Below are positions 602-16,186 of a stretch of 16,186 nucleotides of DNA, piece by piece. The notes under the pieces are model-generated. The model saw nothing but the letters and a program-made list of their open reading frames with translations, was not told where the DNA came from and ran no database searches. The stretch is from an uncultured delta proteobacterium (lineage in GTDB: Bacteria; Desulfobacterota; Binatia; Binatales; Binataceae), in assembly GCA_963765675.1 (NCBI GenBank), contig CAVXXK010000002.1, forward strand, positions 1 through 16,186, in the 5' to 3' direction. The position numbers were made by a program, and so were the translations under genes. How positions within the stretch are numbered: the first letter of the stretch is position 1; each line of letters opens with the position of its first letter.

Positions 602-3600
602 TTAGTCGCCAGCGCCCGCCTGCTTGTTGCTCATAAGCGAGCGCAGACCAAACGCAAGATCCTGCTCGGTGAGAACATCAGGAGATGCGTCACTCTCGGC
701 CGCCAACCGCCGAGCTTCAGCGCGTAACGCAAACTCCAGAAATGTCCTGACGTCTCTGCCATTCGACCAGTTTGGCGCGCCCGTTAAGGTTTCGAAAATA
801 TTTGTCAGTTGCTGGCCGGCCTCCGTGCTGAGTTCAAGTTTCTCGTCGACGATCATTCGCTTGAAAATCTCTGAACATTCCAGAGCGGTGTAGTCCGGAA
901 ACTGGATCAAGTTTGTGAAGCGAGATCGAAGGCCCGGATTGGAATTCAGGAAGTTGCGCATTTCTTTGTCGTAGCCGGCGGCGATCACGACCAGCCTGCC
1001 GCGATTGTCTTCCATGAACTTCAGAAGAGTTTCAATCGCCTCTCTGCCGAAGTCGCTGGCTCCGATATCATTTCCAACAGCCAGACTGTATGCCTCATCT
1101 ATGAAAAGGGTGCCGCCTAGCGCACGTTCCAGAGCCTCGCGGGTTTTAATGGCCGTTTGCCCTATGTAGCCCGCCACCAATGATCCCCGGTCAACTTCGA
1201 TGACCTGATCGCTCGGAAGATAACCAGCCTCTTTGAAGATTCGTCCCATGATGCGGGCAACGGTGGTTTTGCCGGTCCCCGGACTGCCCATCATCACGAA
1301 ATAAGGCTGCAATGCATCACGCGGATCTCGGCCCCGCAGTTTGGCAAGTCTGATCAGGGCCTCATATTCACGGACCGTTTCCTTGATCGCATCAAGCCCG
1401 ATCAGCCGATTCAACTCATCGGCGCTTGTTCGCACTTCAACAGTCGGTCCAAGAAGGTCGGGCCGTTCGAGTCGAATCAGAGTCTCTTTCACCAGAGCCG
1501 AGCCGGAACGTCGCAGCGTATCGAGGCGCGCTGCCTGGCGCCGAATGGCTTGCTCGAGAAGATTCCGCACCGCGCGTGCGTTACCGAAATACTTGCCGAC
1601 GCGTTCGCGCGCTAGCACGTCTACAGCCGCGGCAAGATCATCTTCGGAGATCGAATAGCTCCTTTCGCTGGCCATCGCGGCGAGAATGCTCTTGAGCTGA
1701 TCGTTCGAATAGTCTTCGAAGACGAGGCGTTCTCCGAACCTGCTCTTGAATCCCGGATTAGTCTCCAATAGCGCATCCAGTCGATCCGGATAGCCCGCCA
1801 GGATTACGACTAAATCGTCTCGATGGTCCTCCATGAACTTGAGAAGGGTGTCGATACACTCCTGCCCGAACCAATCTTGCTCGTCGTGCTTGAGCGAATA
1901 GGCCTCGTCTATGAACAAGACGCCACCCAAGCTCCCTTTCAAAACTTTCAAGGTTTTTTCGGCCGTCTGGCCCAAGAAACCAGCGACAAGAGTGCTGCGG
2001 TCAGCCTCAACCAAATGTCCTTTCGTCAGATAGCCATACTCGCGCAGCATCTGCGCATAGACGCGAGCGACCGTAGTTTTGCCCGTTCCCGGATTACCAA
2101 CGAACACGGCGTGCAGCGAGAGTCTCGAGACGAGGAGCCCAGCCGTCTTTCTTTCCGCATTGATTGCCAACAAACTCCGGATTTCGTTGAGCGATTGCTT
2201 GACCGAGTCGAGCCCTACCATGTCGGCGAGAGCGGGTGTGTCGGCTTCCGATTGGGCCGACGAACTGGCAACCGGAGGCGATTGCGTCTCCGTTTCATCC
2301 GCATTCTCGTCAGTCTGTGCACCTTCCTCGGTATCTGCCAAATGCCATATTGCGATCGCTCCCGATTCTCGGTGGTGAGCGATTTGGAAGGACGACCCGG
2401 ACGCTCCGAGCTGTCGCTGTGCCTGTCGAGCAACCCGCCGTGCTTCTCGCAGCTGGGCGTCGAACACACCGTCCCATATGTCCTGACGTCCTTTCAGCAG
2501 CTTGACTCGTTCCCTCTTGTTCCGCCCAGCTTCAACCATCTGGGCATCGATCTCTGAAAGATGCTTATAAACAGAGTCACCCGGATGGCAGATCATTAAG
2601 AGCTTACTTCCTCCGATAGGCACCCTCTTTAACTCGTCTGCTGTTAACTGAACGACGTCTGCACCTGTGCAGTCGCCGGGCACTTTGAGCACCAACGGGC
2701 CATCAGCGACGACTACAAATCCGCCGGTGTCGAGCGGCGTATATCGAGTGGTGTCGATGCCAGCCGTCTTACGGTTCTTAAGAAACCGTGACTTATCGAG
2801 ATCATCTTCCCGCTCGCGCCTTCCGATGGAAACTGTGTAATAATACCAAGCGGCAAGATCACGAATTGACATCAAGGTCTCGTCATTGAGGAGCTGGGGC
2901 AAACTGGGTGCTCTATCGAGTACTACGGTGTGAGCGCTTCTAGCTTGTTCCTTTGCCTCGTCTATGAAATCCAAAAGCCGAGAGTGAAGGCCAACTAGTG
3001 CGTTCGCTACTGAATGAAATATCTCTTCTAGGAAATTTCCTCCATCCCTTCGACGCACTTCATACAAAGCGGTGTCTATGGACTCAACTCCGCGCTCATG
3101 AACACGCTCAAGCGTACACCGCTCGAGCTGCCTAAGTGTTTCTTCGGAAATTGCGCGCTGGCGCTCACTAGGGTTTTGCAAGCGCATGGAGAACTCTTTA
3201 TCATCCTTCGCCAGTTGGTCGAGTTTAGGTTGTCCCCATGCCGCCCGCGATTGTTTCCATTCTTTAACTCGCTGCTTCGGCCAGATGAGCCAGGGTCGGA
3301 CACCTATAAAGAACAACTGTGGATGGATGTCGTAGCCGCGCACAATCTTAAGTGACGACAGTACGGCATCCAGCGCTCCAACCGCCATAGAGGTCGCGTT
3401 CCGCAATTGTTCGAGATTCTGGAGAGATGAATATTGCGACGCAAAAGCAATAGTATCTAAGACGTCTTGGCAATCCTCGATAACTCCCGCAGCGAAGGCC
3501 GCGTCTAGTATCCTGACAGCGTACTCCAACGCATCGGATGTAGCAGTTTTGTAAATTTCGTCCCGGCCGGTGAGGAAGGCGGTCGGGTCGTCAAGCGATG

Positions 3601-3619
3601 CGAGTAAGCGACGGAACAC
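602..3619 (-). CDS. Tandem AAA+ ATPase, SpoVK/CbbX/EccA-like, with unrecognised ~430-aa N-terminal region
   Basis: Two AAA modules: HAVFVGNPGTGKTTVAR / LFIDEAYSL / GFKSRF / FGNARAVRN, and MGSPGTGKTTVAR / LFIDEAYSL / NPGLRSRF / SNGRDVR. An acidic linker precedes module 1. Start is uncertain because the frame stays open about 40 codons upstream of the GTG. Confidence 0.92.
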   Translation of the reverse strand: MFRRLLASLDDPTAFLTGRDEIYKTATSDALEYAVRILDAAFAAGVIEDCQDVLDTIAFASQYSSLQNLEQLRNATSMAVGALDAVLSSLKIVRGYDIHPQLFFIGVRPWLIWPKQRVKEWKQSRAAWGQPKLDQLAKDDKEFSMRLQNPSERQRAISEETLRQLERCTLERVHERGVESIDTALYEVRRRDGGNFLEEIFHSVANALVGLHSRLLDFIDEAKEQARSAHTVVLDRAPSLPQLLNDETLMSIRDLAAWYYYTVSIGRREREDDLDKSRFLKNRKTAGIDTTRYTPLDTGGFVVVADGPLVLKVPGDCTGADVVQLTADELKRVPIGGSKLLMICHPGDSVYKHLSEIDAQMVEAGRNKRERVKLLKGRQDIWDGVFDAQLREARRVARQAQRQLGASGSSFQIAHHRESGAIAIWHLADTEEGAQTDENADETETQSPPVASSSAQSEADTPALADMVGLDSVKQSLNEIRSLLAINAERKTAGLLVSRLSLHAVFVGNPGTGKTTVARVYAQMLREYGYLTKGHLVEADRSTLVAGFLGQTAEKTLKVLKGSLGGVLFIDEAYSLKHDEQDWFGQECIDTLLKFMEDHRDDLVVILAGYPDRLDALLETNPGFKSRFGERLVFEDYSNDQLKSILAAMASERSYSISEDDLAAAVDVLARERVGKYFGNARAVRNLLEQAIRRQAARLDTLRRSGSALVKETLIRLERPDLLGPTVEVRTSADELNRLIGLDAIKETVREYEALIRLAKLRGRDPRDALQPYFVMMGSPGTGKTTVARIMGRIFKEAGYLPSDQVIEVDRGSLVAGYIGQTAIKTREALERALGGTLFIDEAYSLAVGNDIGASDFGREAIETLLKFMEDNRGRLVVIAAGYDKEMRNFLNSNPGLRSRFTNLIQFPDYTALECSEIFKRMIVDEKLELSTEAGQQLTNIFETLTGAPNWSNGRDVRTFLEFALRAEARRLAAESDASPDVLTEQDLAFGLRSLMSNKQAGAGD

Positions 3620-4199: not shown

Positions 4200-4257
4200 T
4201 GCCGGGGGCGGGACTCGAACCCGCACGGAACTTTCGCTCCAGAGGATTTTAAGTCCC
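4200..4257 (-). tRNA. Intron-less 3' fragment of tRNA-Leu(TAA); probable att scar
   Basis: Minus strand GGGACTTAAAATCCTCTGGAGCGAAAGTTCCGTGCGGGTTCGAGTCCCGCCCCCGGCA. No CCA and no contiguous 5' half. Confidence 0.85.
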
Positions 4258-4703
4258 TTAAGTTTACCCCCGCCGCCGCTTTCTCGCGCGCCGTCATCGC
4301 CGAATCGCGCCGCAAATCGGGCATCGACTGCCGCTTCGCTGCCAGTTTCGCCTCAACCCCCCGCTCGATAGAGACTCCCGGCTGAAGGATTCCGCGCCAA
4401 AGTGCCGGACTATTTCGCCTTCAAAGTCGCTCGTGCTGACGCGCAGTCAGCGGATCGAGCGAAAGCGGCACCACTTGCCGGAGACCCAGTGCAGACTCAG
4501 CCTTTTTCCCAGCAGCATTCTTCGGTGTTGGCAAGGAACGCCAAAGTCCCCTCCGAAAAATCGAAACAGAGAGAATCTTGCCAAATGGCCCCACATCGTA
4601 GTCAATGGACATTTCTCTGTGGGACTTTGGCCTCAGAAAACGCCGTGCACGCGGGCATTTCGCGACGCAGACCGCAATTTTCTCTGCTTCGGAGACTCGG
4701 GTG

Positions 4704-4790
4704 CGGAGGGGGTGGGATTCGAACCCACGAGGGACTTTCATCCCTGCCGGTTTTCAAGACCGGTGCCTTCAACCGCTCGGCCACCCCTCC
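4704..4790 (-). tRNA. tRNA-Ser(TGA), complete cloverleaf, CCA not encoded
   Basis: Acceptor GGAGGGG/CCCCTCC with discriminator G; D arm GCC...GGC; anticodon arm CCGGT-CTTGAAA-ACCGG; variable arm AGGGAT-GAAA-GTCCCT; T arm GTGGG-TTCGAAT-CCCAC. Confidence 0.96.
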
Positions 4791-4800
4791 AAGCCTTATA

Positions 4801-4813
4801 AATCAAGCACTTA
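4801..4813 (+). promoter_or_regulatory. IHF-binding consensus in att arm
   Basis: AATCAAGCACTTA matches WATCAANNNNTTR exactly. It lies between the tRNA and the arm-type repeats and overlaps the integrase stop codon. Confidence 0.6.
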
Positions 4814-6065
4814 CGCGATTCCGAGCCGCCGCGACAGGCTTTGACCTTCCACTTTTCTTCCACTTCCGCCGGGTTCCGGAAGAAACGCCCAGAGCTTGCT
4901 CAGCCAACCGGTCCGCCGCTCCCGTCTCCGCGTCCTTGAAAAAGTGCGAATACACCCGGAGCGTGATCGCCGGCGACGCGTGGCCTAAGCGATGCTGTAC
5001 CTCTGTGATTGGTGCGCCGGCCGCGATCATTGCGCTCGCGCACGAATGGCGGAGCGAGTGGAAAGTGACCTGCAGCAGCTCAGCGCGCCGTAGGGCCGGA
5101 TGGAGCCCGCATTTAAGAATCCGATCGCGACACGCCGGCTGCCCGTCGTCACCCGGGAACACCAAATCGAGATCTGATGGCGAGCATTGAATCTTCCACG
5201 CTTTGAGCATCGAGACCATCGCAGGTGCGATCGTGATCCAGCGCGTCCCCGCCTCCGTCTTAGGTGGGTAAAAGCGTGGCCGTACAGGTTCCTTGGGATC
5301 GACACGCGCCCGTGACATAGTCCGCTCGACGTGTATCTTACCGCGACTGCCATCAGCGGCATCGAACTCGATATTGCCCCATTGGAGCGCCAGCAGCTCG
5401 CCCGAACGCATACCCGTCACAAACGCCATCGTAAACAGCGTCCGGTAATAACCCGGCGTTGCGGCATCCAGCATCAAGCGCACCTGGCTCGGGCTAAGCA
5501 CGCTGTCCGGTTTTACGCTGTCGCCATCGCGCGCACCGTCCTCGCCCGGTACGAGCTCGCGCGTCGCCTTGAACGCGGGCTCGATGTCAGCAACGGGGTT
5601 GCTCACCGCTTGATGACGTCGAATCGCAGCACGAAACACCGCGCCGGCGATCCGAACGATCGTATTGATCGTCCGCGGTGCATACTCTTGCGCGCGCAAA
5701 TCGTTGCGAAGCGATTCAATCATTCCAACACTGATATGATTCAGCCGCAGGGCGCCGAACCGCGGTAGTAGGTGCTTGTCCAGGCGCGATCGCAAGTCCG
5801 CCACGTGAGACGCGCGACGATCGGTCTTCGACGCGTACCAGGTCTCGGCCGCGGCCTTGAACGTCGGAATCTCCTCAGGCGCAACATATTCGCCACGGCG
5901 AACTTTGACTTGCGTGTCAGCGCGGTGTTGCTCCGCTTTCCCCTTCGTCTTGAACTGCAGCATACGGCGCGGCCCCTTGACGCCCAGCGGCCGATAATCC
6001 AGTCGCCAAGGGCACTTACAATCGCCGCCCGCGCAATCGGTTCGGTGGATACGTTTGATCGCCAC
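4803..6065 (-). CDS. int: Tyrosine recombinase / phage integrase (~420 aa)
   Basis: Catalytic set R (TGMRSGELLAL), K (PPKT), HxxR (FHSLRH), LGH and Y (RVYSH). Start placed at GTG 6065, which has a GGAGG RBS and overlaps the upstream stop (TAGTG). Confidence 0.96.
   Translation of the reverse strand: MAIKRIHRTDCAGGDCKCPWRLDYRPLGVKGPRRMLQFKTKGKAEQHRADTQVKVRRGEYVAPEEIPTFKAAAETWYASKTDRRASHVADLRSRLDKHLLPRFGALRLNHISVGMIESLRNDLRAQEYAPRTINTIVRIAGAVFRAAIRRHQAVSNPVADIEPAFKATRELVPGEDGARDGDSVKPDSVLSPSQVRLMLDAATPGYYRTLFTMAFVTGMRSGELLALQWGNIEFDAADGSRGKIHVERTMSRARVDPKEPVRPRFYPPKTEAGTRWITIAPAMVSMLKAWKIQCSPSDLDLVFPGDDGQPACRDRILKCGLHPALRRAELLQVTFHSLRHSCASAMIAAGAPITEVQHRLGHASPAITLRVYSHFFKDAETGAADRLAEQALGVSSGTRRKWKKSGRSKPVAAARNRVSA
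4846..4865 (+). repeat. Arm-type direct repeats CTTCCACTT x2
   Basis: Copies at 4846-4854 and 4857-4865 inside the integrase 3' end. The same core and spacing recur at 16077/16088. Confidence 0.6.
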
Positions 6066-6250
6066 TATCGTTCCCTCCTCTCGTCCTGTGCCACGAGCGT
6101 CAACAGCAACCGCGCCGCGCTCTCGCGGATCGCCATCTGGCCTGTCTCCCACCGCGCAACAGATACGCGCGAAACACCGATCCGCTGCGCTAGCTCAGCC
6201 TGCGTGAGTCCCATGCGTTTACGAAGTCGCTGTATTTCCTTGCCAGTCAT
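6065..6250 (-). CDS. Xre/Cro-family HTH regulator (61 aa)
   Basis: IQRLRKRMGLTQAELAQRIGVSRVSVARWETG is a canonical HTH_3 pattern. Stop overlaps the int start. Confidence 0.92.
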   Translation of the reverse strand: MTGKEIQRLRKRMGLTQAELAQRIGVSRVSVARWETGQMAIRESAARLLLTLVAQDERRER

Positions 6251-6258
6251 TGTAGCGT

Positions 6259-6287
6259 AGCGTAACAGGAACGTCGGCAAGAGTCAA
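6259..6287 (-). promoter_or_regulatory. Sigma70-like promoter for xre-int, near-leaderless
   Basis: TTGACT (6287-6282), 17-nt spacer, TGn-TACGCT (6264-6259), 8 nt before ATG 6250. No RBS. Confidence 0.55.
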
Positions 6288-6302
6288 ACGGAACGCGGGC
6301 GC

Positions 6303-6526
6303 GGTTTAGGTACTTTAGCCACTTTACTGCTTGGGCTTATAGCTTCGTAACTTTTCGCGGCGTATTACTATCCGCGCGCGCGACTTACATAGAAGATACT
6401 TTAGGTGGTTTAGGTGGTATTTTTTTATATTATTGGACGTGGTGTGGCTGATCCCTCAAAAACGCATTTCACATATCCCTAAGCAGTAAAGCACCTAAGA
6501 TACCTAATCCACAGCCGCGAACCTAA
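6303..6526. repeat. 9-bp-phased iteron-like repeats in inverted arrangement around an AT-rich core; candidate origin
   Basis: TTTA at 6305/6314/6323, TTTAGGTGG at 6400/6409, inverted TAA units at 6487/6496/6505. 6303-6335 is an imperfect inverted repeat of 6478-6510 (26/33 by hand alignment). AT run at 6419-6434. Confidence 0.6.
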
Positions 6527-6727
6527 GAAGCCGCCCTCTTGGCACAACCGTTGCTGTCGCGGATATCAAAAGTCAGAAACCCCCTGAGCAGCGGCGCAAT
6601 CCCGCGATCCCTGGGCATCACATTCGATGCTCAGCTCGCGGCGCGGTTTGGCCGCGATATGGATGGCAGGTGGATGCCACATCGCTAAGGGCGTGATATT
6701 ATTAGGCTTTTAGCTATACTCCGGTTG

Positions 6728-7288
6728 TCATAACCGGTGCGTGAGTGCAGATCGTCTAGAATAACCTTTGTAAATTAGAGGTTTTTTCTGGCGCGCACGC
6801 GAGCGATCGGGCCGGGCGCGCAATCGTGCGGCGGCCTTCTTGATCTGCTCGATCTGTTTGGCGCTCGCGCCTTTTAACGATCCAGGGTCCGGCTTTTTCC
6901 CGAACGTGTAAGTTCGTAGTGATAGGATCGACGAGATATCGTCCTTGGTCGTGGGTCGCCGCGTCGCGCGCGGTAGGGCGTAGCTTGCCGGTATGACGCG
7001 CGCCACGGCAAGGCCGGCGGCCGTCAGGTTAGCGCTCACCCCTCCGGCGCCGCGATTCCAGATCGAAGCACCTGGGCGAACGTACTGGCGGACGATAACA
7101 ACCAAGTGCCGGCGCACGAGCGCGCGAACCGAGCGGCTGATGGCGGCCCTGGCAATTCGCAGTTCCGGGAAGGCGGCGCGGGGCAAGTGGTAAAATTTCC
7201 GGATGATCTCGCCATACCTCACCTCGCCTCCGCGTTCTGCGGCGCGCCGCAAAATGTAACGCTGCAAGTCGCTAAGCGTTTTTGCCAC
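6728..7288 (-). CDS. Basic hypothetical protein with winged-helix (MarR-like) N-terminal domain
   Basis: LSDLQRYILRR...ISRSVRALVRRHLV...LTAAG pattern. Start GTG 7288 lies 6 nt after TTGACG-17-AATACT. Confidence 0.6.
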   Translation of the reverse strand: MAKTLSDLQRYILRRAAERGGEVRYGEIIRKFYHLPRAAFPELRIARAAISRSVRALVRRHLVVIVRQYVRPGASIWNRGAGGVSANLTAAGLAVARVIPASYALPRATRRPTTKDDISSILSLRTYTFGKKPDPGSLKGASAKQIEQIKKAAARLRARPDRSRARQKKPLIYKGYSRRSALTHRL

Positions 7289-7457
7289 GCGCACAGTATT
7301 AACCGATAAGCGCGTGCCGTCAACGCCAGTAGCGAAAAACACATACGTAAAAGTTAGGTACGCGAAACTGAGGTATTATATTCGCGTGTGGAATCGAATT
7401 GTAAAAGTCGCGCGCGCGGATCAGGCACGCCGCCGGTGTGCCTCTATATTTCCCGTG

Positions 7458-7797
7458 GTGAGCCGAGTTGTAAATCAGGTGAGTGGTGGTGCGGATGGCA
7501 GGTCTTCCGATCCTTCGTGGGTTGATCAACTTCCGACGGAACAAATTCCGAAGGCGCTGGTTCAATTGGCCGGGTTGCACTGCCGACTAGCGGCGCGCTT
7601 GGCTATGGCGCCGCAGCCCGGTGTCGCATCCGCGGACGCCCTGGTTGAACGCGCCCACGCTCGCAAAGCGGTTGGGCGTTCCCGAGTCACACGTTCGCAT
7701 GCTGCAGCGCGCAGGCACGATCCCGAGCGTACGGGTCGGCGCGAAATATATTCGTTTCAGTATCGCAGCAGTCGCGGCGGCGTTGAAGGCGGTTTGA
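7458..7797 (+). CDS. Excisionase-like HTH_17 protein, one frameshift at ~7643-7644
   Basis: Removing one G joins ...IPKALVQLAGLHCRLAARL...DAL to LNAPTLAKRLGVPESHVRMLQRAGTIPSVRVGAKYIRF...LKAV* (TGA 7795-7797). The HTH part is not in the ORF track. Start is 7458 or 7479. Confidence 0.72.
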
Positions 7798-7802
7798 CGC
7801 GG

Positions 7803-9295
7803 ATGGGCAAAGTGACCGACATCGCGCGCGCCGCAGCGCTACCAAAACGAGAGCCTCCACAGCCGCTCGTCCGCGAAGTTCCGCCGGGCGAACCGTTCCC
7901 GACTGAGGCACTACCTGGACTGTTGGGCGACACGGTTCGTGCTGCTTGCGAGCGCACTCAGGCTCCTCTGTCGCTGTGTGCGCAGTCTCTTATGGCAACC
8001 ACGGCGCTGGTGGTTCAAGCGCAGGGAAACGTTGAACTGCCGACCGGCGCCGTGAAACCGATCAGCGAATATTTCGGAACCATTGCAGCGACCGGCGAAC
8101 GCAAGACCTCGGCCGATGACTGGGTGTCGCAGGCGATCAAGGAACGCGAGCTAGAGCTCGATATAACCTATCGCATCGAGCTTGTTCTGTATCAGAATCG
8201 ACTGGCGGCCTATGAGCGCCAGCGACATCAGGTTCTCTCAAACCGAAAGAGCAATCCGGACCTTTCATCGAAAGAGCAGGCGCTTGCCAAACTCGGCCCC
8301 CCTCCGACGCCGCCGATGAGCCCTTTGCTCACGGTTCCTGAACCGACATTTGAGGGCTTGACGCGATTTCTTAAGGATGGGCAGCCGAGTGTTGGGCTTT
8401 TCTCGACAGAAGGTGGGCAGTTTATCGGCGGTCATGCCATGAGCGAGGAGAACCGCCTCAAGACGGCCGCAGGCTTTTCGCGACTATGGGACGACGGCGA
8501 AGCTCGTCGATCACGGCAAGGTGAAGGCACCTACGTCGTTAGAGGGCGCCGCGTCTCAATGCATCTGCAGGTTCAGCCGGACGCTGCCGCAAGGTTCTTT
8601 GCGGATCTGGTCCTACAGGATCAGGGCCTGCTCTCGCGCTTTCTGACGGTCTGGCCTGTCAGCACTATAGGTTACCGCAAATCACGCAAACCCAGCGATC
8701 AGAGCGCGGCAATTCTTGACCAGTATCGCCAGCGGGCGCTTGCGATTCTCCGATCGCAGCCACCTCTTATAGGTAATGAACTCCGGCGCCGACTTTGAGG
8801 CTCAACCCTGGCGCGACCGAGTTATGGGTGCAGTTCTACGATTGGACGGAAGCTCAGCTTCGCCCTGGCGGTCCGCTCGAGCCCGCGACGGGCTTAGCCA
8901 ACAAGGCACCCGAACACGCAACGCGACTCGCGGCGATTCTGACTCTGTTTGTGGACCTGGATGCGCGGGAAATCGACGAGGCAAAGATGCTGAACGGCAT
9001 CACGCTGGCGCGGTTCTACCTGAGCGAAGCAATCCGAATCGTGAGTCTCACAAAAGTTGATCCGGATCTCGTGCTCGCGAAAAGGCTTGTGGCGTGGCTG
9101 CGCGATTCGTGGAAGGAACCCAACGGCTTAATCTCGCTGCCCGACATTTATCAGCGGTCGTTGAACGCGATCGGGGACAAGGCCACCGCGTCGAGAATTG
9201 TTGACATCTTAGCTGGGCATGGCTGGCTGCAGCCGCTCGGTCCCGATGAAGTGAACGGAATACGCCGACAGCAAGTGTGGAGGATTGTGCGATGA
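7803..9295 (+). CDS. DUF3987/YfjI-family putative replication protein (helicase-like), frameshift at ~8785
   Basis: Motifs FPTEALP, TIAATGERKTSAD (P-loop-like), EPTFEGL, LWDDG, QVQP, QGLLSRFL. Continues in the 8795-9295 frame with KAPEHATRLAAIL and a wHTH-like C-terminus. Confidence 0.85.
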
Positions 9296-9873
9296 AACCT
9301 TTACCGAAATTCGACCCGAACGCGAGTTCGGAATCTCAAAAAAAGGAAGGAAAAATGGACTTACGGCAGACAGAAACCCAGTCGAGCCCGGCGATCGTGG
9401 ACGCGGCCATCACGGAACAGCCGGCGGCTAGGCCCGACCGGAAACCGCGAACTCGGATCCAGCATGAGCGGAGCCAGTTCGTGCACGCGACCAACACCTA
9501 TCGCCGTGCGCTGGGCGCCGAGTTTGACGCGCCCGATCTGCTCCGTCTGACAGATGTCAACGAGGTCAGTCAGGACGAGTTCGCGGCAATTCGCGATCGC
9601 GTAGCCGCAGCGCTCGTCCTCGGTGTAGAGGGGATCGGAAAGTCCAAAGTTCCGTCGCTCGACGTTGAGCTTGAGAACTTCGAACTCTGGCAGCACCAAC
9701 GTGTGTCTTACTTTCACTGGGACGAGGCTGCGCTCGAAGCCCTTCGGCGGAAACTCGAACAGCTCGGGCCGGGGTGCGAACTCATTCCGTGTTTCGCGAT
9801 GAGCGTTCAAGTGAAGCTCCCCAGCGGCAAATTGATCTTAATCAATCGCCGCGGCGAGCAAACGAAAAGCTGA
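9292..9873 (+). CDS. Hypothetical protein (193 aa)
   Basis: ATGA overlap with the upstream stop; GGAGG at 9279-9283. Confidence 0.7.
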   Translation: MKPLPKFDPNASSESQKKEGKMDLRQTETQSSPAIVDAAITEQPAARPDRKPRTRIQHERSQFVHATNTYRRALGAEFDAPDLLRLTDVNEVSQDEFAAIRDRVAAALVLGVEGIGKSKVPSLDVELENFELWQHQRVSYFHWDEAALEALRRKLEQLGPGCELIPCFAMSVQVKLPSGKLILINRRGEQTKS

Positions 9874-9929
9874 AAAAGGACAGCCGCAGCGTTGGCGCGC
9901 TACGGCCGGAGAGCGAGAGCGAGAGCGAG

Positions 9930-10664
9930 ATGAGTGCAATAAGTCTAAACGATAGCTTGCGTGCCTATCGGAATGATCTGCGCGGCGAGCTGAACGCGCT
10001 CGCCAATCGAAACCTGGTACGTCTCAATGGGATCGGCGACCTTACGATAGATCCGCTCGTGATCGGAGTCCCCCTTGCCGACGGATGGCACTGCCTTATG
10101 CCGCGTTCGGTCTTCAATGACTTGGTGGATCACGAGAGACGTTTCGGGCGCATATCACGCATTGCAGATGAGGACCGCGTGCTCTCGGGCATCGATCTGT
10201 TGCACGACAACAGTTGGCCGTTCTGCCGCGACTGCCTGCTGCCGTTCGTGACCATGCTGAACGGACATCCGGGCTGCGGTGACTGGGTGAATCGAATCGA
10301 GGACGGCGCGGAACTTTGCGAATGCTGTTGGCTAGCGGAACACTACGCCGGTGATCGTCGCAAGATGATCGAGCACGCCTTGCGATGCGACGTGGGTGAC
10401 GACTCGCGACTCGTCCGCGTAGAACTACGCCGCGGGCGGGATCGCGACGGCATCATTGAAAGGTTGCAGCGATCCTATTGGCGATCTCCGGGGCTGCGCG
10501 AGCTGCTCCGTCTGCATCGCGTCAGCATGGCGGAATCGGCCGGCGTGATCCTGCGCATGCTCGAGGCGCTCATTGTTGAGGTGAAGGCCAAGGAAGGTGA
10601 GCGGAACTCGCGAGCGGAAGCGGCGCGACGCGCCATTTGGCGCGATGAGCGAGTCTCAGCATGA
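9930..10664 (+). CDS. Hypothetical protein with Cys cluster, possible Zn binding (244 aa)
   Basis: FCRDC...HPGCG...LCECCW motifs; co-directional with neighbours; stop overlaps the next ATG. Confidence 0.65.
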   Translation: MSAISLNDSLRAYRNDLRGELNALANRNLVRLNGIGDLTIDPLVIGVPLADGWHCLMPRSVFNDLVDHERRFGRISRIADEDRVLSGIDLLHDNSWPFCRDCLLPFVTMLNGHPGCGDWVNRIEDGAELCECCWLAEHYAGDRRKMIEHALRCDVGDDSRLVRVELRRGRDRDGIIERLQRSYWRSPGLRELLRLHRVSMAESAGVILRMLEALIVEVKAKEGERNSRAEAARRAIWRDERVSA

Positions 10665-10897
10665 CACCTGAAAAAAAAACAGGCACGCGGCGGATATGTT
10701 TCTGTTTATCGCGTATGGCAAGCAATCAAACCGATACGGGCCTGTTTCTCTCGATTCCGGCTGCGGCGCGAGAGTTGGGCGTGAGCATCAGGCGGCTGAC
10801 GCTTGCGATCGACTTGCGGCAGGTGCCGGCGATAGTGCTCGGCCGCCGCAAGGTAGTGCCGCGCGCTGCGATAGAGAAGCTCGCGCGATTGGACTGA
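10661..10897 (+). CDS. Excisionase-like HTH_17 DNA-binding protein
   Basis: LSIPAAARELGVSIRRLTLAIDLRQVPAIVLGRRKVVPRAAIEKL. Alternative start ATG 10715. Confidence 0.8.
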   Translation: MTPEKKTGTRRICFCLSRMASNQTDTGLFLSIPAAARELGVSIRRLTLAIDLRQVPAIVLGRRKVVPRAAIEKLARLD

Positions 10898-10918
10898 AAA
10901 AAAAAGGACTGCGGGGCA

Positions 10919-11530
10919 ATGATGAACGACCTAGATTTTGACCTGGCAAAACATTTCGGCACGGCCGTCGATCGCATCGACGCTCGCGAGGTGGACGAGA
11001 TATTGGCGCCCGACCTTCGCGAAAGCATCTTCGCTCAACCGCGCGCTGCCCTGTATGCGCGAGTGCAGGATGACTTGTGCGACTTTCGGCTTGATCGGAT
11101 ACCGGCGGCGCTGGCGGACTACCGGCTGGCTCTGCGCGAGAGAATGACCTTTGAGCGAACGCGGGGATCGCTGAAGCCGCCATCCACGCCGATCGATGAG
11201 GTCAAGCGCGTGGCTGAAACGGGCTACTTCGAAAAGTACCTGGTCAATGGCTTCGAGCTCCGCACGCTCGCCGACTGGCTTGAGCCTGGTGAGCGGATCG
11301 ACATTCACGCGCCCGCGTTTCGGCTGATCAAAACAGACCGGCGCGAAATCGTACGCGGCGGTGACTTTTTCGATCAGGGGCGCCCGGTCGGTTATACGAA
11401 GGAATTCTGGTTGAAAAAATGCACGCCGGCGCACCTGCTGGCCGAAGCGGAAGAAAAGCTAAAACGAGAGGAACGCGAAGCCGCTCGTCCGTTCAGCGAT
11501 TTCGCGGGTCCGAACGTGAGGCCGCGATGA
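10919..11530 (+). CDS. Hypothetical protein (203 aa)
   Basis: Long ORF in the operon direction with protein-like composition; ATGA overlap with the next gene. Confidence 0.7.
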   Translation: MMNDLDFDLAKHFGTAVDRIDAREVDEILAPDLRESIFAQPRAALYARVQDDLCDFRLDRIPAALADYRLALRERMTFERTRGSLKPPSTPIDEVKRVAETGYFEKYLVNGFELRTLADWLEPGERIDIHAPAFRLIKTDRREIVRGGDFFDQGRPVGYTKEFWLKKCTPAHLLAEAEEKLKREEREAARPFSDFAGPNVRPR

Positions 11531-11974
11531 TTGGAACGCAGGTCGGCGGCCTTCCGATCGAGCTTTTTGATCGGCAGGGGAATTTTTCAAGAAACGTGCG
11601 CGAGGGGAGAGATATGCCTCTATACAAAATTGAAACTGTGTCCGCCATCACCCAGGCGATGGGCGGAGATCCCGAGGCGGCCGTGTCGCTGGCGATCCGC
11701 ACGCTCGGCAGAGGTATGGCCGGCGTTCCGCTGACGCTGGCAGGCCGACAGGCGCTCGCCGTTCCCGGACGCAAAGCGCATCCCCGGCGATACCGGGCTT
11801 GCCGGCGGGCATGACGACGTTGACGACGAAACCGACGATCCTGGACTTGCCGATTTCGACGCGAACCTCGACACCGTGGAGCGCGTGCGGCGCAAAAAAG
11901 CACGCGACGCTGCGAAGCGTGAGGCTGCGAAACGCGCGAGCCCCATCGGCATCGTGTTTCCGAAACGGGTTTAA
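11527..11974 (+). CDS. Hypothetical protein, probably frameshifted near 11740, with acidic then basic C-terminus
   Basis: MIGTQVGGLPIELF...AVSLAIRTLG in one frame; ...HDDVDDETDDPGLADFDANLDTVERVRRKKARDAAKREAAKR...FPKRV* (TAA 11972-11974) in another. Confidence 0.45.
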
Positions 11975-12146
11975 GGATGAAAAAGTTTGCCGAGGCGCGG
12001 GCGACATCTCCGCTCGCGAAAGCCTGGCGCGGCGTCGCTTCCACGTCGGGTCCCCTCGGCAAGGCCGGGCAGCGCGTTGCTTGACCGTGGCGCGTGGGGG
12101 CGGGTCTTCCTCGTTCCGCCCGCCTCCAGCCCGGCGATTTTGATCC

Positions 12147-12534
12147 ATGAGTGACGATCTCACACCGCGCCCGAAATTCGCGCCCTCGCCAGTCGAGCGG
12201 CGGCGGCGGCGGGATATTCAAATCCAGCGCATTGTCAGGCAGATTCGCCGAAACGCACCGTGGACTGAGGGGATCGCCTACACTCCACTTTTACGGCGCT
12301 TCGCTGAACTCTCTCTCTTGGCCGAACGCGCCTACGCCACGCTTCGGGACGCCAACCTACTTAATGGACAGGGCGAGCTGAGATCTTCCCTAACTACCTA
12401 CCGCCAAATCTGTGAGACATCGCGGTCGCTCGCGCGGAACTCGGCCTCTCCCCAACTGTCGCGGAGACGCTTGCACCGCGCGCGAAAATCCTCGATCTGG
12501 AAAGCATTCGAAATGTCAGCGAAAAAGACGAGTA
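12147..12534 (+). CDS. terS: Terminase small subunit, P27-like; frameshift at GG 12436-12437, end uncertain
   Basis: Helical core LLRRFAELSLLAERAYATL...SLTTYRQICETSRSLAR. Adding one G gives ELGLSP, the LGL(T/S)P motif. Lies directly upstream of TerL. Confidence 0.65.
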
Positions 12535-14023
12535 TCTTGTCGGGTTCGCCGAACGGATCCTCTGCGCTGATCTGTGGGACACGCAGCGTGAGATTCTGAA
12601 CGCGATCGAAACCGAGCGACAGGTGGCGATCGCAGCCTGCCACGCATCGGGCAAGAGCTACGTCGCGGCCTGTGCTGCGATAGGGTTTGCGGCGCGATAC
12701 GAGGATGCGCGAGTCATAACGATCGCCCCGGGCTGGTTGGGCGTAAGAACGGTCCTATGGAGCGAAATCCATTCCCTGATCGAGCGCGCAAAGTACAAGC
12801 TACCCACCGTCATCAGCAATCAGACGGAGATTCGCCTCGGCACCCGCAACTTGATCCTCGGCTTGTCCGCATCGGACAGTGCCCGGCTCCAGGGCCACCA
12901 CGCCGAAAATGTTCTCATAATCGTTGACGAAGCTGCGGGCATCGATGAATCCTTTGGCCATCCATTCACGGTATTTTAGCCGGCGGCCACGCGCGGCTCC
13001 TGTTGCTCGGCAATCCGACGACGACGAGCGGCACTTTTTATGATTGCTTCGGCCGTGGCCGGGCCGCATGGCGCACGTTCACGATCAGCGGGTTCGACAC
13101 GCCCAACCTACGGGGCGTAAGTCTTGAACGATTGCTCGTAATGTCAGATGCCGATCTCGACACGAACGAGCGCGGGTACCTAATCACGCGCCGATGGATC
13201 CGCGAGCGGTACGCCGAGTGGTACAACGCGGTTGACGAGAATTCGCCTCTGCTGGCAGTGGTGGGTACTCGGAATTTTCCCATGTGAGTCATCGAATGCG
13301 TTGATCCCGCTGTCCGCGCTCGAGGCGGCCCGCAAGCCAGCCGACGACAGGGGCGGTGACGTCACGATCGGCATCGACATTGCCGGACCGGGGTAAGGAT
13401 CGCACAGTCGCGATAGCTTGCTGCGGGTGCGCGATCCTAGAGACAGGTATTTGGACTGGCGATAGCTATGGCCCCATCCTCGCGTTCATTCGCCGCTGGG
13501 CATCGCGTGCGAAAGTAGTGAACTGCGACTCCACCGGCCTTGGCTGGGGCATCGTTCAACGTCTCATAGCCGAACGCTTAGGTGTTCGCGTCGTCGGCCT
13601 CAATGCAGCGAGCAAGGCGCAAGAGTCTGAGCGTTTCGCGAACGATAAGGGAGCGCGGTACTGGTATCTACGCGAGCGCTTCACGCGCGGCGAAGTCAGT
13701 GGCGCAAGCGACGAACTGGTCGCAGAGCTAAGCGCCATTAACTACACTATTACCCCGGATGGCCTGGCACCGCGATCGAGGATAAAGCGAGCGTCAGGTC
13801 GGCGCTCGGGAAGAGTCCTGATCTCGCTGAGGCGCTCATGCTCGCGATGGGCGAGGCGCCCCAGGAGCCTTGGGTCTTCATCCCGCTGCCCGGCAGCTCC
13901 ACGCCCTACGTCGGCTCTAGCGAGCTGGAAAAACAGCAGAGGATCGATGCGGCTGAAGACGCGCGCGAGCGCTTTTCGCGCCAGCACATGCGGGGAAGGC
14001 ACGGAAAATGGTCGGGTTATTGA
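12513..14023 (+). CDS. terL: Terminase large subunit, split by 4-5 single-base frameshifts
   Basis: Stitched across frames: LWDTQREI (Q motif), ACHASGKS (Walker A), LQGHH...IIVDEA (Walker B), LLGNP (coupling motif), IGIDIA and NCDSTGLG (RNase H-like nuclease), SPDLAEALMLA. Shifts at ~12533, 12953-12955, ~13251, 13390-13393 and ~13765. Confidence 0.9.
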
Positions 14024-14205
14024 AAGGGATACGCCTCGATCGCCGGCGTCTGGTCACGCGCGAGATCTGCCCGAAATGCGAGATCGAGCCACGCCTCATT
14101 CCCGAATTCCAATGCGGGATCGCGGATTGTCCGGGCAGGACGGTGAAAATCACCAGAAGTTACCAGGCCTGGTTTGCGCGGAAAAAGGGAACAGCAAATG
14201 GCTAA
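14020..14205 (+). CDS. Small Cys-rich protein, possible zinc ribbon
   Basis: CPKC...CGIADC. TTG start overlaps the TerL TGA and the stop overlaps the next gene. Confidence 0.5.
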   Translation: MKGIRLDRRRLVTREICPKCEIEPRLIPEFQCGIADCPGRTVKITRSYQAWFARKKGTANG

Positions 14206-14446
14206 ACTTTTTGTCGGAAACCTAAGGTACGAAATGACCGAGCGGGAACTCCGGGACCTATTTTCGCCTTATGATTGCAGCGAGGCGACGATCGTGTTTG
14301 ATCCCCACACGCGCGACTCGCGGGGCTTCGGCTACGTCGTAGTCGCGGACGTAAAAGCAATTAGCGATCTCGACGGCCAGCAGGTCAATGGCCGGCGCCT
14401 GCACGTCGAAGCGGCGCGGCCAGAAACCCCCGAAGGCCGAGGTTGA
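14198..14446 (+). CDS. Single-domain RRM (RNP-1) RNA-binding protein (82 aa)
   Basis: RNP2 LFVGNL, RNP1 RGFGYVVV, C-terminal LDGQQVNGRRLHVEAARP; AAGGGA RBS. Confidence 0.93.
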   Translation: MAKLFVGNLRYEMTERELRDLFSPYDCSEATIVFDPHTRDSRGFGYVVVADVKAISDLDGQQVNGRRLHVEAARPETPEGRG

Positions 14447-14470
14447 GTTCGAGCGGAGACGATCGAAAAA

Positions 14471-14714
14471 ATGACACGATTATTTGTGGGACGCCTGCAG
14501 GACGGGACGACTGAGGTTGATCTGCGCGCGCTGTTCGCCAAGTATCGATGCACCTCGGCGGAAATCGCTGTCGATCGCTGGACGCGCGAGCCGCGCGGAT
14601 TCGGCTTCGTCGAGATCGAGGGAGTTTGCCGCCGCGATTCAGGATTTGCATGGCGCGAAAATTCGCGGCGAGCGCATCGTGGTGAAACTCGCGACGCCGC
14701 GGCAACCGTATTAG
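14471..14714 (+). CDS. Second RRM RNA-binding protein; one extra G at 14620-14622
   Basis: RNP2 LFVGRL and RNP1 RGFGFVEI. Removing one G continues EEFAAAIQDLHGAKIRGERIVVKLATPRQPY*. Confidence 0.88.
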
Positions 14715-14740
14715 GTTCCGCCAATCCTTGAAGTCTGTTC

Positions 14741-14775
14741 TGGCCCGGCACCTTCCCGAGGGGGGGCGCGGGTCA
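14741..14775. terminator. GC-rich imperfect hairpin between convergent genes
   Basis: TGGCCCG...CGGGTCA outer stem and CCTTCC/GGGGGG inner stem; no clear U tract. Confidence 0.3.
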
Positions 14776-15012
14776 GCACCGGGCCGGATCAGTGGGAGGA
14801 CGAATTGACGTTACCGGTGCTCGCCTGCCGCCCAGCGCGATGGTGCTCTCGCTCATCCAGCGTTCAATCGCGGCGCGATCGAATCGCCACAGATCGCCGA
14901 CCCGCATGGCGGGAATCTGCGATGTGCTGGCTGATCGGTAGATCGAACTGACGTTGCAACGCCACGCCGCCGCCAGTTCAGCGACCGTCAGAAGCTCGCC
15001 CAGCCTTTCCAT
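14773..15012 (-). CDS. Excisionase-like HTH_17 DNA-binding protein (79 aa)
   Basis: LLTVAELAAAWRCNVSSIYRSASTSQIPAMRVGDLWRFDRAAIERW. Start placed at ATG 15012. Confidence 0.85.
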   Translation of the reverse strand: MERLGELLTVAELAAAWRCNVSSIYRSASTSQIPAMRVGDLWRFDRAAIERWMSESTIALGGRRAPVTSIRPPTDPARC

Positions 15013-15116
15013 ACATGCCGCTCCCGCCGCCGGCGATGCCTGGTTCTCAACACCGCTCCCGCCGCGATTCCTGCGCCAAAGCTGATCACCGCGATCGCGA
15101 TCAAAACGGGATCCAT
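14988..15116 (-). CDS. Small single-pass membrane protein (42 aa)
   Basis: MDPVLIAIAVISFGAGIAAGAVL followed by RTRHRRRRER; overlaps both neighbours. Confidence 0.5.
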   Translation of the reverse strand: MDPVLIAIAVISFGAGIAAGAVLRTRHRRRRERHVWKGWASF

Positions 15117-15220
15117 CGCAACCCCATCCGACGCGCCGTAACGAGCATCTTCTCGAGCCGACGAATTTCCGCCCGATCCCGTCGCCGTTGCGCACGGCGC
15201 CGATTGCTGGTTCGCCTCAT
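15101..15220 (-). CDS. Small Arg-rich peptide (39 aa)
   Basis: MRRTSNRRRAQRRRDRAEIRRLEKMLVTARRMGLRWIPF; ATGA overlap with the upstream stop. Confidence 0.4.
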   Translation of the reverse strand: MRRTSNRRRAQRRRDRAEIRRLEKMLVTARRMGLRWIPF

Positions 15221-15369
15221 CGCCGTCGAATCCCGACCACATGCAGAACGCCATCAACGACGCGACGCCTGCGGCCTAGCGCGACCCATTCCATTGCAAA
15301 ATCCCACACGATCGAAAGCGCGACCAACACCAGCGCGGCGACGATCCAGGACCATCTGGTCGCCATCAT
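15217..15369 (-). CDS. Small single-pass membrane protein (50 aa)
   Basis: MMATRWSWIVAALVLVALSIVWDFAMEWVALGRRRRVVDGVLHVVGIRRR; starts 3 nt after the upstream stop. Confidence 0.5.
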   Translation of the reverse strand: MMATRWSWIVAALVLVALSIVWDFAMEWVALGRRRRVVDGVLHVVGIRRR

Positions 15370-15372
15370 ATC

Positions 15373-15579
15373 TCACATCTTCGACGCGCCGGTATCGCAT
15401 CGATCTGATCGTGCAGCGGATGGCGCACCGGCCAGCCGGAGATCGGGCCGCCGGGCGGCGGCGATGCTTTTCTGCAGCACGACGGCCAGAGCGTCGGCCA
15501 GCTCGGCAAAAAAAAGGCCGTCCGTTTCCAGTTCATGCGCGACGCGCGCGACCAAAGCCTGACGCTCGGGGTTTTCCAT
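15373..15579 (-). CDS. Hypothetical protein (68 aa)
   Basis: Strong RBS GGAGG 8 nt before ATG 15579; MENPERQALVARVAHELETDGLFFAELADAL. Confidence 0.6.
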   Translation of the reverse strand: MENPERQALVARVAHELETDGLFFAELADALAVVLQKSIAAARRPDLRLAGAPSAARSDRCDTGASKM

Positions 15580-15697
15580 TACCTTTTCCTCCGCGGTTCG
15601 TTTTTGACCCGCCGTGCGGGGTGGTAGTTGCTTGCTTACATACGCTTTTACAGATGCGTGTGTCAAACGCTTCTATTGAAGCATATTTGAAGGGCTT

Positions 15698-15735
15698 TTG
15701 GCGGATGCCGCGGCATCGGCTACATTGTGCCGATG
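15698..15735 (+). promoter_or_regulatory. Leaderless sigma70-like promoter with overlapping palindromic operators
   Basis: TTGGCG (15698), 17 nt, TACATT (15721), 6 nt, ATG 15733. Perfect palindrome GATGCCGCGGCATC (15704-15717). Inverted repeat CATCGGC-N8-GCCGATG (15714-15735). Confidence 0.55.
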
Positions 15736-15912
15736 GTCGAACTGAGCGAGCACCTGCGGCGGGCCAGGCGGGCTAGGTGGAAGGGCAAAACCGCGGAGGA
15801 AAAGTCAGCCACGGCATCACATGCCGCGAAGGCTTACTGGGACAAGTTGTCTCCCGAAGAGCGCTCCGCCGAGATGCGTCGCCGGGCAAAGAAGCGGAAG
15901 CGATCGAGCTGA
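15733..15912 (+). CDS. Small basic protein with internal ~20-aa repeat, likely nucleic-acid binding (59 aa)
   Basis: ARWKGKTAEEKSATASHAA / AYWDKLSPEERSAEMRRRA repeat units. Confidence 0.7.
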   Translation: MVELSEHLRRARRARWKGKTAEEKSATASHAAKAYWDKLSPEERSAEMRRRAKKRKRSS

Positions 15913-16076
15913 CGGCAGGCTTCACGCCGTTAGGTCGGGAAATGCGATCCCCAGTGGCAGCTCAGGTTTGCGCCGACGCTGGTATTACTCGCGCCTTGCT
16001 CTTGACCCCAAGGCGCATAAGCCGCGCGTTCGCCTCGAGCGCGGGTCGGCCGTGCCGCGTTGCGCGTGACGTCCAC

Positions 16077-16180
16077 CTTCCACCCGCCTTCCACTCCGTG
16101 CTTTTACACCGTAACCCACCATAACAGAAACCCTTATATTCCCTAGCAGGGTAACCCACCGTAGCCCTACAAAACCCACC
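16077..16180 (+). repeat. Candidate right att arm: CTTCCAC x2 plus 10-bp-phased GTAACCCACC-like units
   Basis: CTTCCAC at 16077 and 16088; GTAACCCACC at 16111 and 16151; GTAGCCCTAC at 16161; AAAACCCACC at 16171. Confidence 0.6.
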
Positions 16181-16186
16181 GCCTAG

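Follow-up and report, generated by a model that had tools for sequence, protein, structure and literature searches.

Tail-less RRM protein genes follow the large terminase gene in a family of satellite-like elements from Binataceae

Eukaryotes rely mainly on RNA recognition motif (RRM) proteins to bind RNA; in bacteria these proteins have been little studied. In a 16,186-bp stretch of DNA from an uncultured member of the Binataceae (the whole of contig CAVXXK010000002.1, here called the window and numbered C2 among the 16 contigs of the 4.5-Mb genome G000), we found an integrative element in which RRM genes sit behind the genes for the small and large terminase subunits, terS and terL. The rightward operon reads structured leader, terS, terL, a small peptide gene with four cysteines (Cys4), RRM1 and RRM2. 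These RRM genes are real and element-specific and encode tail-less single-domain RRM proteins, and intact RRM genes occur in the same position at 10 of 12 related element loci. The pairing of terL with RRM genes is unreported so far in the literature we covered, at the level of titles and abstract openings. The genes at the downstream end of the operon are as follows.

14008–14205 (+): Cys4 peptide, 65 amino acids (aa), CxxC...CxxxxC, a probable zinc ribbon, from alignment and profile search.
14198–14446 (+): RRM1, 82 aa, an intact, tail-less single RRM, from Pfam RRM_1, AlphaFold2 (AF2) and Foldseek.
14471–14714 (+): RRM2, duplicated from RRM1 and diverged (42% identity), with a frame break at about 14620–14626, from Pfam and reading of the frames.

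RRM1 aligns with the entire Pfam RRM_1 profile (PF00076; positions 1–70 of 70, E 5.9e-14, 52.1 bits against a cut-off of 20.7). Its RNP2 and RNP1 motifs are LFVGNL and RGFGYVVV and keep all three RNP aromatic positions, and those of RRM2 are LFVGRL and RGFGFVEI. The AF2 model of RRM1 (predicted local distance difference test, pLDDT, 89) has the beta-alpha-beta-beta-alpha-beta order, with strands at residues 2–7, 29–34, 41–49 and 69–72 and helices at 15–21 and 53–58, the second helix being six residues long. Foldseek places this model at a template-modeling (TM) score of about 0.8 to canonical and RNA-bound RRMs, and the top ones among its 494 PDB matches at E ≤ 0.001 are all RRMs. No residues follow the domain and there is no Gly-rich tail, in agreement with the preliminary description of this DNA. 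That description had reported a pair of single RRMs with intact RNP motifs, both of them shortened between RNP1 and helix 2. For RRM1 both statements hold: it is an intact 82-aa open reading frame (ORF), and 11 residues separate its RNP1 from xDG versus 14–15 in the 12 measurable of 14 chromosomal RRMs (four fewer than in ten of these, three fewer than in the other two). RRM2, which starts 24 nt after the end of RRM1, is by contrast frame-broken in the assembly, so that RRM2 as first described, ending at 14714, is a two-frame reading: frame A, from 14471 onward, covers RRM_1 positions 1–45 only (28.8 bits), and the C-terminal half lies in the frame of 14484–14714. The break falls between RNP1 and helix 2, exactly where the shortening of RRM2 had been seen.

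The connection to terL is tight. The Cys4 ORF starts 16 nt before the stop of the terL frame (14021–14023) and ends 8 nt past the RRM1 ATG, confirming that the RRM genes are tied to terL through the Cys-rich peptide by overlapping stops and starts. In the window and its relatives terL, Cys and RRM genes either overlap at stop and start or are separated by gaps of at most 24 nt. The relatives were collected as element loci with a shared backbone (orf296 and/or orf203/220, terS and terL); there are 12, namely the window and 11 further ones, one from IMG/VR and the rest from Binataceae genomes.

L077 (contig C3 of G000, the window's own genome): after terL, Cys and four RRMs.
L043, L044 and L045 (G004, a genus-level relative of the window genome): after terL, Cys and two RRMs each.
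L078 (G305): after terL, Cys and one RRM.
L079 (G340): after terL, Cys and one RRM, 60–62% identical to RRM1.
L086/L167 (IMG/VR contig): after terL, Cys and one RRM.
L084 (G032): after terL, a 190-aa ORF, then one RRM.
L171 (G465): directly after terL, one RRM, 68% identical to RRM1.
L168 (G110): a split terL and a truncated RRM remnant.
L169 (G401): after terL, a 248-aa ORF and no RRM.

The linkage first noticed in the window is therefore not unique to it. One to four intact RRM genes stand directly after terL, or after terL and one small gene, at 10 of the 12 loci, with a remnant at one and none at one, a count biased by the RRM or Cys queries through which most of the loci were found. With orf296 as a marker independent of the RRMs (7 loci in 151 family genomes), five loci have an intact RRM after terL, one has a remnant and one has none. 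A collection of 5.8 billion sequences held four further close relatives of RRM1 (68–84% identity, 89–105 aa), one of which is the L171 gene. At L077, the stretch 10228–13450 (G000:C3:276227–279450) reads leader, terS, an intact 561-aa terL, Cys and four tandem RRMs of 79, 90, 84 and 80 aa, the first of them with degenerate RNP motifs. At L084 (10496–11068, −) and L169 (6277–7023, −) an ORF of 190–248 aa with a helix-turn-helix (HTH)-like C-terminal stretch precedes or replaces the Cys/RRM block, and at L169 a 71-aa ORF resembling a double zinc ribbon overlaps that of 6277–7023.

The association holds across three lineages of terL. The first has the TerL_ATPase/TerL_nuclease domains (PF03354/PF20441; L043 and L077 and, by similarity, L169, L171 and L045), the second Terminase_6N/6C (L044, L078, L079 and L086 and, by similarity, L084 and L168), and the third is the type found in the window, matching phrog_2/phrog_5902. 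The terS-like gene before terL is homologous across all three, which suggests from sequence comparison that terL has been swapped within the element backbone. This one terS-like family is thus paired with three unrelated terL families in the same backbone (window, L043, L044, L079 and L171).

Phages with related terminases look different. Among IMG/VR contigs carrying Terminase_6 relatives of the L079 terL, RRM and Cys genes occur in just 1 of 80, the element contig L086 itself (76% identical terL), and in 0 of the 79 others. Nine loci with relatives of the window-type terL had no RRM or Cys match in the fetched flanks, and the one viral contig found with an L043-type terL (55% identity) had neither. 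The RRM genes had been said to occupy the usual position of a portal gene, and this is borne out: of the 80 Terminase_6 contigs, 20 were picked for enough downstream sequence; in 18 of these 20 a related terL is soon followed by a complete ORF of 150 aa or more, and the first such ORF is a portal in 13 of the 18. A tblastn search with RRM1 against 50,697 phage records gave 2 matches, both in Acinetobacter phage MD-2021a at 37% identity, and a search of viral contigs with RRM1 alone gave none. In the titles and abstract openings that we covered, we found neither terminase-linked nor satellite-borne RRM genes reported, and no description of the Cys peptide plus RRM block or of the structured leader in satellites.

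The element RRMs are also distinct from those of the host chromosome. There are 12 RRM_1 matches in G000 and several in 60 of 61 relatives, and RRM1 is at most 43–45% identical to any paralog of its own genome outside the window. In a maximum-likelihood tree of 29 rows (leaving out same-locus duplicates, the truncated C1:40728 copy and the frame-broken RRM2, and including one chromosomal row from the unpublished genome G027), the 15 chromosomal RRMs cluster together with support 92/80. The 13 element rows lie outside this group, as does row L030, later recognized as the L084 element RRM, so that the element proteins do not nest among the chromosomal ones. RRM1 scores 62.8 bits (E 2.6e-17) on the NCBIfam equivalog domain Rbp_regulator (NF058537), below the cut-off of 100, whereas the chromosomal paralog L002:1474–1845 passes it with 105.2 bits. 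A Gly-rich tail (Gly fraction 0.4 or more) is present in 8 of 14 host RRMs versus 0 of 13 element RRMs, and net charge and isoelectric point do not discriminate the two sets. The ratio of nonsynonymous to synonymous substitution rates (dN/dS) is 0.15–0.47 for RRM-A, RRM-B and Cys in 13 pairs (0.15 for RRM1 against its L079 counterpart), with two more pairs saturated; the element RRMs are under purifying selection. Because of the tree separation, the failed Rbp_regulator cut-off and the dN/dS values, we consider the element RRM genes, as judged from sequence, to be old, element-specific and constrained, and not recent host copies. On the chromosome, G000:C1:40728–40862 (L083:7756–7962) is a truncated RRM, with profile positions 1–44, that runs into unrelated sequence.

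The operon of the window itself is, as assembled, broken in several places; the preliminary description had treated its terL as one gene, which the assembly does not support.

12147–12599 (+): terS-like gene, 3′ part out of frame, from tblastn to relatives.
12446–14023 (+): terL, at least five frame pieces in the assembly, from phrog_2, phrog_5902 and tblastn with intact relatives.

The window terS is read across three frames and has no Pfam, PHROG or NCBIfam match; by tblastn, homology to the gene ahead of terL in L035, L043, L044, L045, L079, L084, L169 and L171 extends over its N-terminal ~100 aa. The terL pieces lie at ~12446–12979, 13003–13287, ~13240–13387, 13356–13780 and 13838–14023. 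The N-terminal one (12446–12979) matches the phrog_2 terminase large subunit (E 1.4e-8) and also phrog_5902, and tblastn aligns the window terL throughout to intact relatives of 531–548 aa in the frame order 2, 1, 2, 3, 2, which amounts to at least four frameshifts. Compared with the window, short-read contigs from two public runs of one study (X1 and X2; 95–99% alike to it, depth 2–5) have one extra nucleotide after 12952, lack one each at 13765 and 13768, and have two extra at 14624/14625. None of the public runs listed held RNA. When these indels were applied by script, two pairs of terL pieces fused and RRM2 became an uninterrupted 81-aa ORF at 14471–14714. Because all three covered breaks (12952, 13765/13768 and 14624/14625) are thus absent from near-identical DNA, the frameshifts probably reflect either indels of the assembly or decay specific to the strain; the terL breaks near 13240 and 13387, like the splits in terS and the DUF3987 gene, lie outside the coverage of the short-read contigs.

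A reading of the frameshifts as real would make the window copy, though not the family, a decaying non-functional remnant in which perhaps only RRM1 is made from 12147–14714. We think this rather unlikely. The concentration of at least seven breaks in 8.8–14.7 kb, set against none in a 3-kb AAA gene and a 1.35-kb integrase gene, speaks for it, as does the split terL of relatives L035 and L168. Against it, each of the indels in the short-read contigs restores a frame at 3 of 3 covered breaks, and the pattern is what would be expected from indel errors in a poorly polished small contig. We also considered the acidic-basic-aromatic C-terminal tail of terL as a docking site specific to the module, and dropped this idea on finding similar tails in the RRM-less terL relatives L037 and L039.

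The Cys4 peptide is present at 8 of the 12 element loci and is a frequent yet dispensable partner gene of the RRM block. Across 14 sequences its four Cys do not vary, nor do several other columns, and its dN/dS is 0.31–0.47. A profile built on it and run against 1.84 billion representatives retrieved just 13 proteins at E ≤ 1e-3; about ten of these are peptides of 61–73 aa, and the nine looked up are singleton clusters found on 1–3 contigs. Its AF2 model (pLDDT 71) matched nothing at E ≤ 0.001 by Foldseek, and the ESM Atlas gave weak leads only, to small viral zinc-finger clusters (scores 0.89–0.90). A scan for the Cys4 pattern returned only the three G004 loci from genome contigs and none from viral contigs; a match in a metagenome contig (L085) proved false, with no terL or RRM around it. 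Complex prediction from alignments of the terL tail, RRM1 and Cys gave 0.00 and 0.18 with Cys as partner, against a mark of 0.32, in runs made without controls.

Ahead of terS the operon begins with a conserved structured element.

11985–12137 (+): conserved structured element with two three-way junctions, ending ~10 nt before the terS start, from folding and covariation.
L043:3591–3740, L079:11734–11879 and L086:3521–3675, and eight more loci besides: structured element in relatives.

In the window it has a minimum free energy of −91.4 kcal/mol (z −3.54; 0 of 200 shuffles as stable), and the 80–170 nt before terS fold independently into the same architecture in 12 of 12 loci. All 12 form the three-way junction of domain 2. 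Domain 1, on its 5′ side, forms a second three-way junction at nine loci and a plain hairpin in L045, and is missing from L077 and L084. In the MAFFT alignment of domain 2, 86.2% of cells pair, versus 67.7% when shuffled and 39–53% with slid partners; compensatory changes support 14 of 17 pairs in domain 2 and 7 of 17 in domain 1, and about 20 G-U cells in domain 2 favor the sense strand. A covariance model run on the 151 family genomes matched only the ten element loci present there, which, these being its training sequences, speaks to specificity and not discovery. Rfam has no family for it (best matches 11–15 bits versus gathering scores of 36–86). A U-run follows the last stem in five or six loci. 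A GAAA junction in domain 1 had raised the thought of a hammerhead-type ribozyme, which we rejected, as no CUGAUGA core was visible by eye and Rfam gave no match. From its sequence and predicted fold the element could serve as a leader or antiterminator, mark a processing site or belong to a packaging signal. A more specific idea, which we hold to be quite doubtful, is that this RNA would be the cis target of the RRM proteins and perhaps of Cys4, whose binding would antiterminate or autoregulate the packaging operon or recruit an RNA into packaging in the manner of the phi29 pRNA. If true, RRM-leader binding would be the first RRM-dependent control of a phage-type DNA-packaging module.

What the RRM proteins do can be approached from their genomic setting. 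Since their genes are translationally coupled to the terminase, they would be made when the element packages DNA. We propose that they bind single-stranded RNA via the canonical RNP surface and would act post-transcriptionally in the late phase, with targets either in the leader or late mRNA of the element itself or among the transcripts of a helper phage or the host; the likely effect would be to bias late gene expression and packaging in the element's favor. Such RNA-level action on late transcripts is the explanation we lean towards, tentatively and with somewhat less than even confidence; its targets and the direction of its effect are guesses. In its favor we count the RRM fold with its RNP aromatics, the coupling to terL, the recurrence beside three terL lineages, the near absence of RRM genes from phages, purifying selection, the separation from chromosomal RRMs, and the covarying structured element ahead of terS at all 12 loci as a plausible cis RNA. 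The roles raised in the preliminary description (post-transcriptional control, antitermination, RNA chaperoning and binding of single-stranded DNA) are likewise conjectures. Were it correct, RRM genes kept beside the terminase across terL swaps would point to an undescribed RNA-level step in the late control or packaging of satellites.

Several observations weigh against this proposal. Besides the bias in how the loci were found, terL, terS, RRM2 and the DUF3987 gene are all frame-broken in the assembly, and absence from near-identical DNA is shown for three breaks only. The structured leader is present in the RRM-less L169 too, and the lack of RRMs there, with only a remnant in L168, indicates that decaying copies, at least, can do without them. 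The number of RRM genes ranges from 1 to 4, with paralogs just 30–48% identical, which fits fast-evolving accessory or arms-race cargo at the element end, and the B-type second RRM of the G004 loci has a Lys at the RNP2 aromatic position. Because swaps of terL leave the module in place on the backbone, the RRM genes may be linked to the operon or element end and not to terminase function.

In one alternative the RRM proteins are host-directed cargo, that is, moron-like RNA chaperones or decoys that alter host RNA metabolism, give stress or cold tolerance or compete with the Gly-tailed Rbp proteins of the host, with the link to terminase merely reflecting a position at the end of the last operon. 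The host clade is indeed rich in RRMs, the block lies at the distal end of the element and adjoins host genes in L044, and the variable copy number and tolerated losses agree with such a role. We nevertheless judge it unlikely: the overlapping starts and stops tie the genes to terL and not to a promoter of their own (a scan of 11500–16186 found 0 sigma-70-like sites), the same kind of gene recurs from locus to locus, unlike in cargo hotspots, whose genes are usually of differing kinds, and the element RRMs are an old separate group and not recent host captures.

RRM folds can bind single-stranded DNA (ssDNA) as well as RNA, and the RRMs, with or without the zinc-ribbon peptide, could instead be packaging accessories that hold or protect the single-stranded cohesive ends or nicked intermediates which terminase makes, or help the terminase dock, replacing accessory factors that complete phages encode near terL. 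Their place directly after terL, the translational coupling and the persistence of the association with three terL lineages would all suit this function, and Pfam and PHROGs revealed no HNH or other terminase accessory gene in the elements. The same three lineages, however, have different nuclease domains and would need the same helper; L169 lacks the RRMs and L171, L084 and L168 lack the Cys peptide; ordinary phages of the same terL families do without such genes; and no cohesive-end type is known for these elements. A packaging role on ssDNA is therefore decidedly unlikely in our view. Weakest, and improbable, is a defense or counter-defense function in which RRM and Cys proteins sense or sequester phage or host-defense RNAs to protect element or host: it would be in keeping with the end-of-element position, copy-number variation and fast divergence, and with satellites being known carriers of defense systems (PMC10085698), but the 8 RRM or Cys proteins that we tested matched none of 5,027 PADLOC models, the block holds no effector domain (nuclease, TIR or toxin) and the genes are coupled to the packaging operon.

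Returning to RNA-level action in the late phase, the nearest structural counterparts are the chromosomal single-RRM proteins (cyanobacterial Rbp, Bacteroides RbpA/B/C and PG1), which like the element RRMs are small, with one RRM_1, RNP1/RNP2 and the same fold; among the top Foldseek matches of RRM1 is PG1 of P. gingivalis (PDB 7jly; 37% identity, TM 0.84). Unlike the stand-alone chromosomal Rbp genes, the element RRMs are encoded in the terminase operon of a mobile element, form a separate tree group and are tail-less, with RRM1 below the NF058537 cut-off and helix 2 shortened in the window lineage. Small proteins that alter late expression or packaging include P4 Psu and Delta, Ppi and Pti of Staphylococcus aureus pathogenicity islands (SaPIs) and the T4 translational repressor RegA. 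To these can be added the effects of phage-inducible chromosomal island-like elements (PLEs) on late expression and packaging of ICP1, as reported (PMC7567579; 10.1101/2024.04.22.590561). The likeness of all of these to the element RRMs is functional only, none being an RRM protein. Cis-acting phage RNAs near packaging or late genes, for their part, include the HK022 put antiterminator RNA, the phi29 pRNA and the P4 CI RNA; the putative leader is likewise a structured, covarying RNA-like element, here at the head of a terS-terL operon, and differs in its two three-way junctions and lack of an Rfam match.

At the level of the whole element, the family resembles phage-inducible chromosomal islands (PICIs), capsid-forming PICIs (cf-PICIs) and P4-like satellites. 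It is ~10–16 kb in size, has its integrase beside a tRNA, and encodes a small terminase of its own along with an AlpA/HTH_17-type gene and a primase/helicase (DUF3987 or D5_N); Pfam and PHROGs showed no full virion module. cf-PICIs are reported to encode all proteins for capsids and packaging (10.1101/2022.09.08.507074); the element in contrast has terS and terL with no capsid, portal or protease match, and Pfam and PHROGs found no cf-PICI-type capsid, portal or head-tail connector genes in the window, L043, L044 or L167. It departs from known satellites in the Cys peptide, the RRM block and the structured leader, and in that some members add a tape-measure-like and a pectate-lyase-like fiber gene. 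The former, of 596–602 aa, lies at L078:12827–14617, L079:13521–15314 and L167:5516–7324 (phrog_28, E down to 2.9e-35), and the latter is a 1073-aa fiber or spike gene at L167:7344–10565; members with tape-measure or fiber genes and without capsid or portal are an unusual mix for a satellite. For biochemistry, the family offers a small group of RRMs without tails and a new zinc-ribbon peptide; it also provides an unreported structured RNA candidate and a first view of satellite-like elements in Binatia, an uncultured lineage widespread in soil and sediment.

The remaining features of the window are these.

602–3619 (−): double-AAA ATPase, 1005 aa, passing the NCBIfam SpoVK cut-off and near the CbbX and EccA models.
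4703–4790 (−): tRNA-Ser (UGA), from ARAGORN; Rfam tRNA 62 bits.
4803–6152 (−): tyrosine integrase, 449 aa, intact; Pfam Phage_integrase E 5.5e-22 and Phage_int_M.
7314–9295 (+): DUF3987 helicase/primase-like gene in two frames, split at ~8795; Pfam DUF3987, phrog_2373 DNA helicase.
9774–10664 (+): orf296, a Cys-rich core gene of the element family, with homologs in relatives.
10919–11530 (+): orf203, a core gene of the element family, with homologs in relatives.
14773–15195 (−): HTH_17 (AlpA/excisionase-like) gene, convergent with RRM2; Pfam HTH_17 E 1.6e-9, phrog_66 excisionase/regulator.

The integrase gene starts 13 nt from the tRNA-Ser, which is the probable integration site of the element, and the double-AAA ATPase gene lies outside the element, across the tRNA. 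No direct repeat of the tRNA that would mark an attachment site, and with it the right end of the element, was found within the contig. DUF3987 profile positions 1–264 fall on 7314–8798 and positions 280–363 on 8795–9295 (Pfam). Neither orf296 nor orf203 has a Pfam or PHROG match. Homologs of orf296 occur in 7 of 151 family genomes, each time inside such elements, and homologs of orf203 lie 5′ of terS in L044, L077, L078, L084, L168, L169 and L171, with a similar 216-aa ORF, judged by eye, before terS in L086. Because Pfam and PHROGs gave no capsid, portal, protease or tail family match in the window (several ORFs remaining without assignment), we infer that it carries a satellite-like integrative element beside tRNA-Ser, which would depend on a helper. 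With its tRNA-flanking integrase, primase/helicase, terS and terL, the element agrees in gene content with the satellite interpretation offered earlier. Beside the G340 element, near a second integrase, there is a TIR-domain gene (L079:17254–18006, +; TIR_2, E 2.7e-11). In the window, a weak second tRNA-like match at 4200–4273 (−) reaches 31.7 bits on the Rfam tRNA model against a threshold of 29, without an ARAGORN call; part of it is repeated at 291–315, and part resembles the end of contig C5 (G000:C5:91104–91169).

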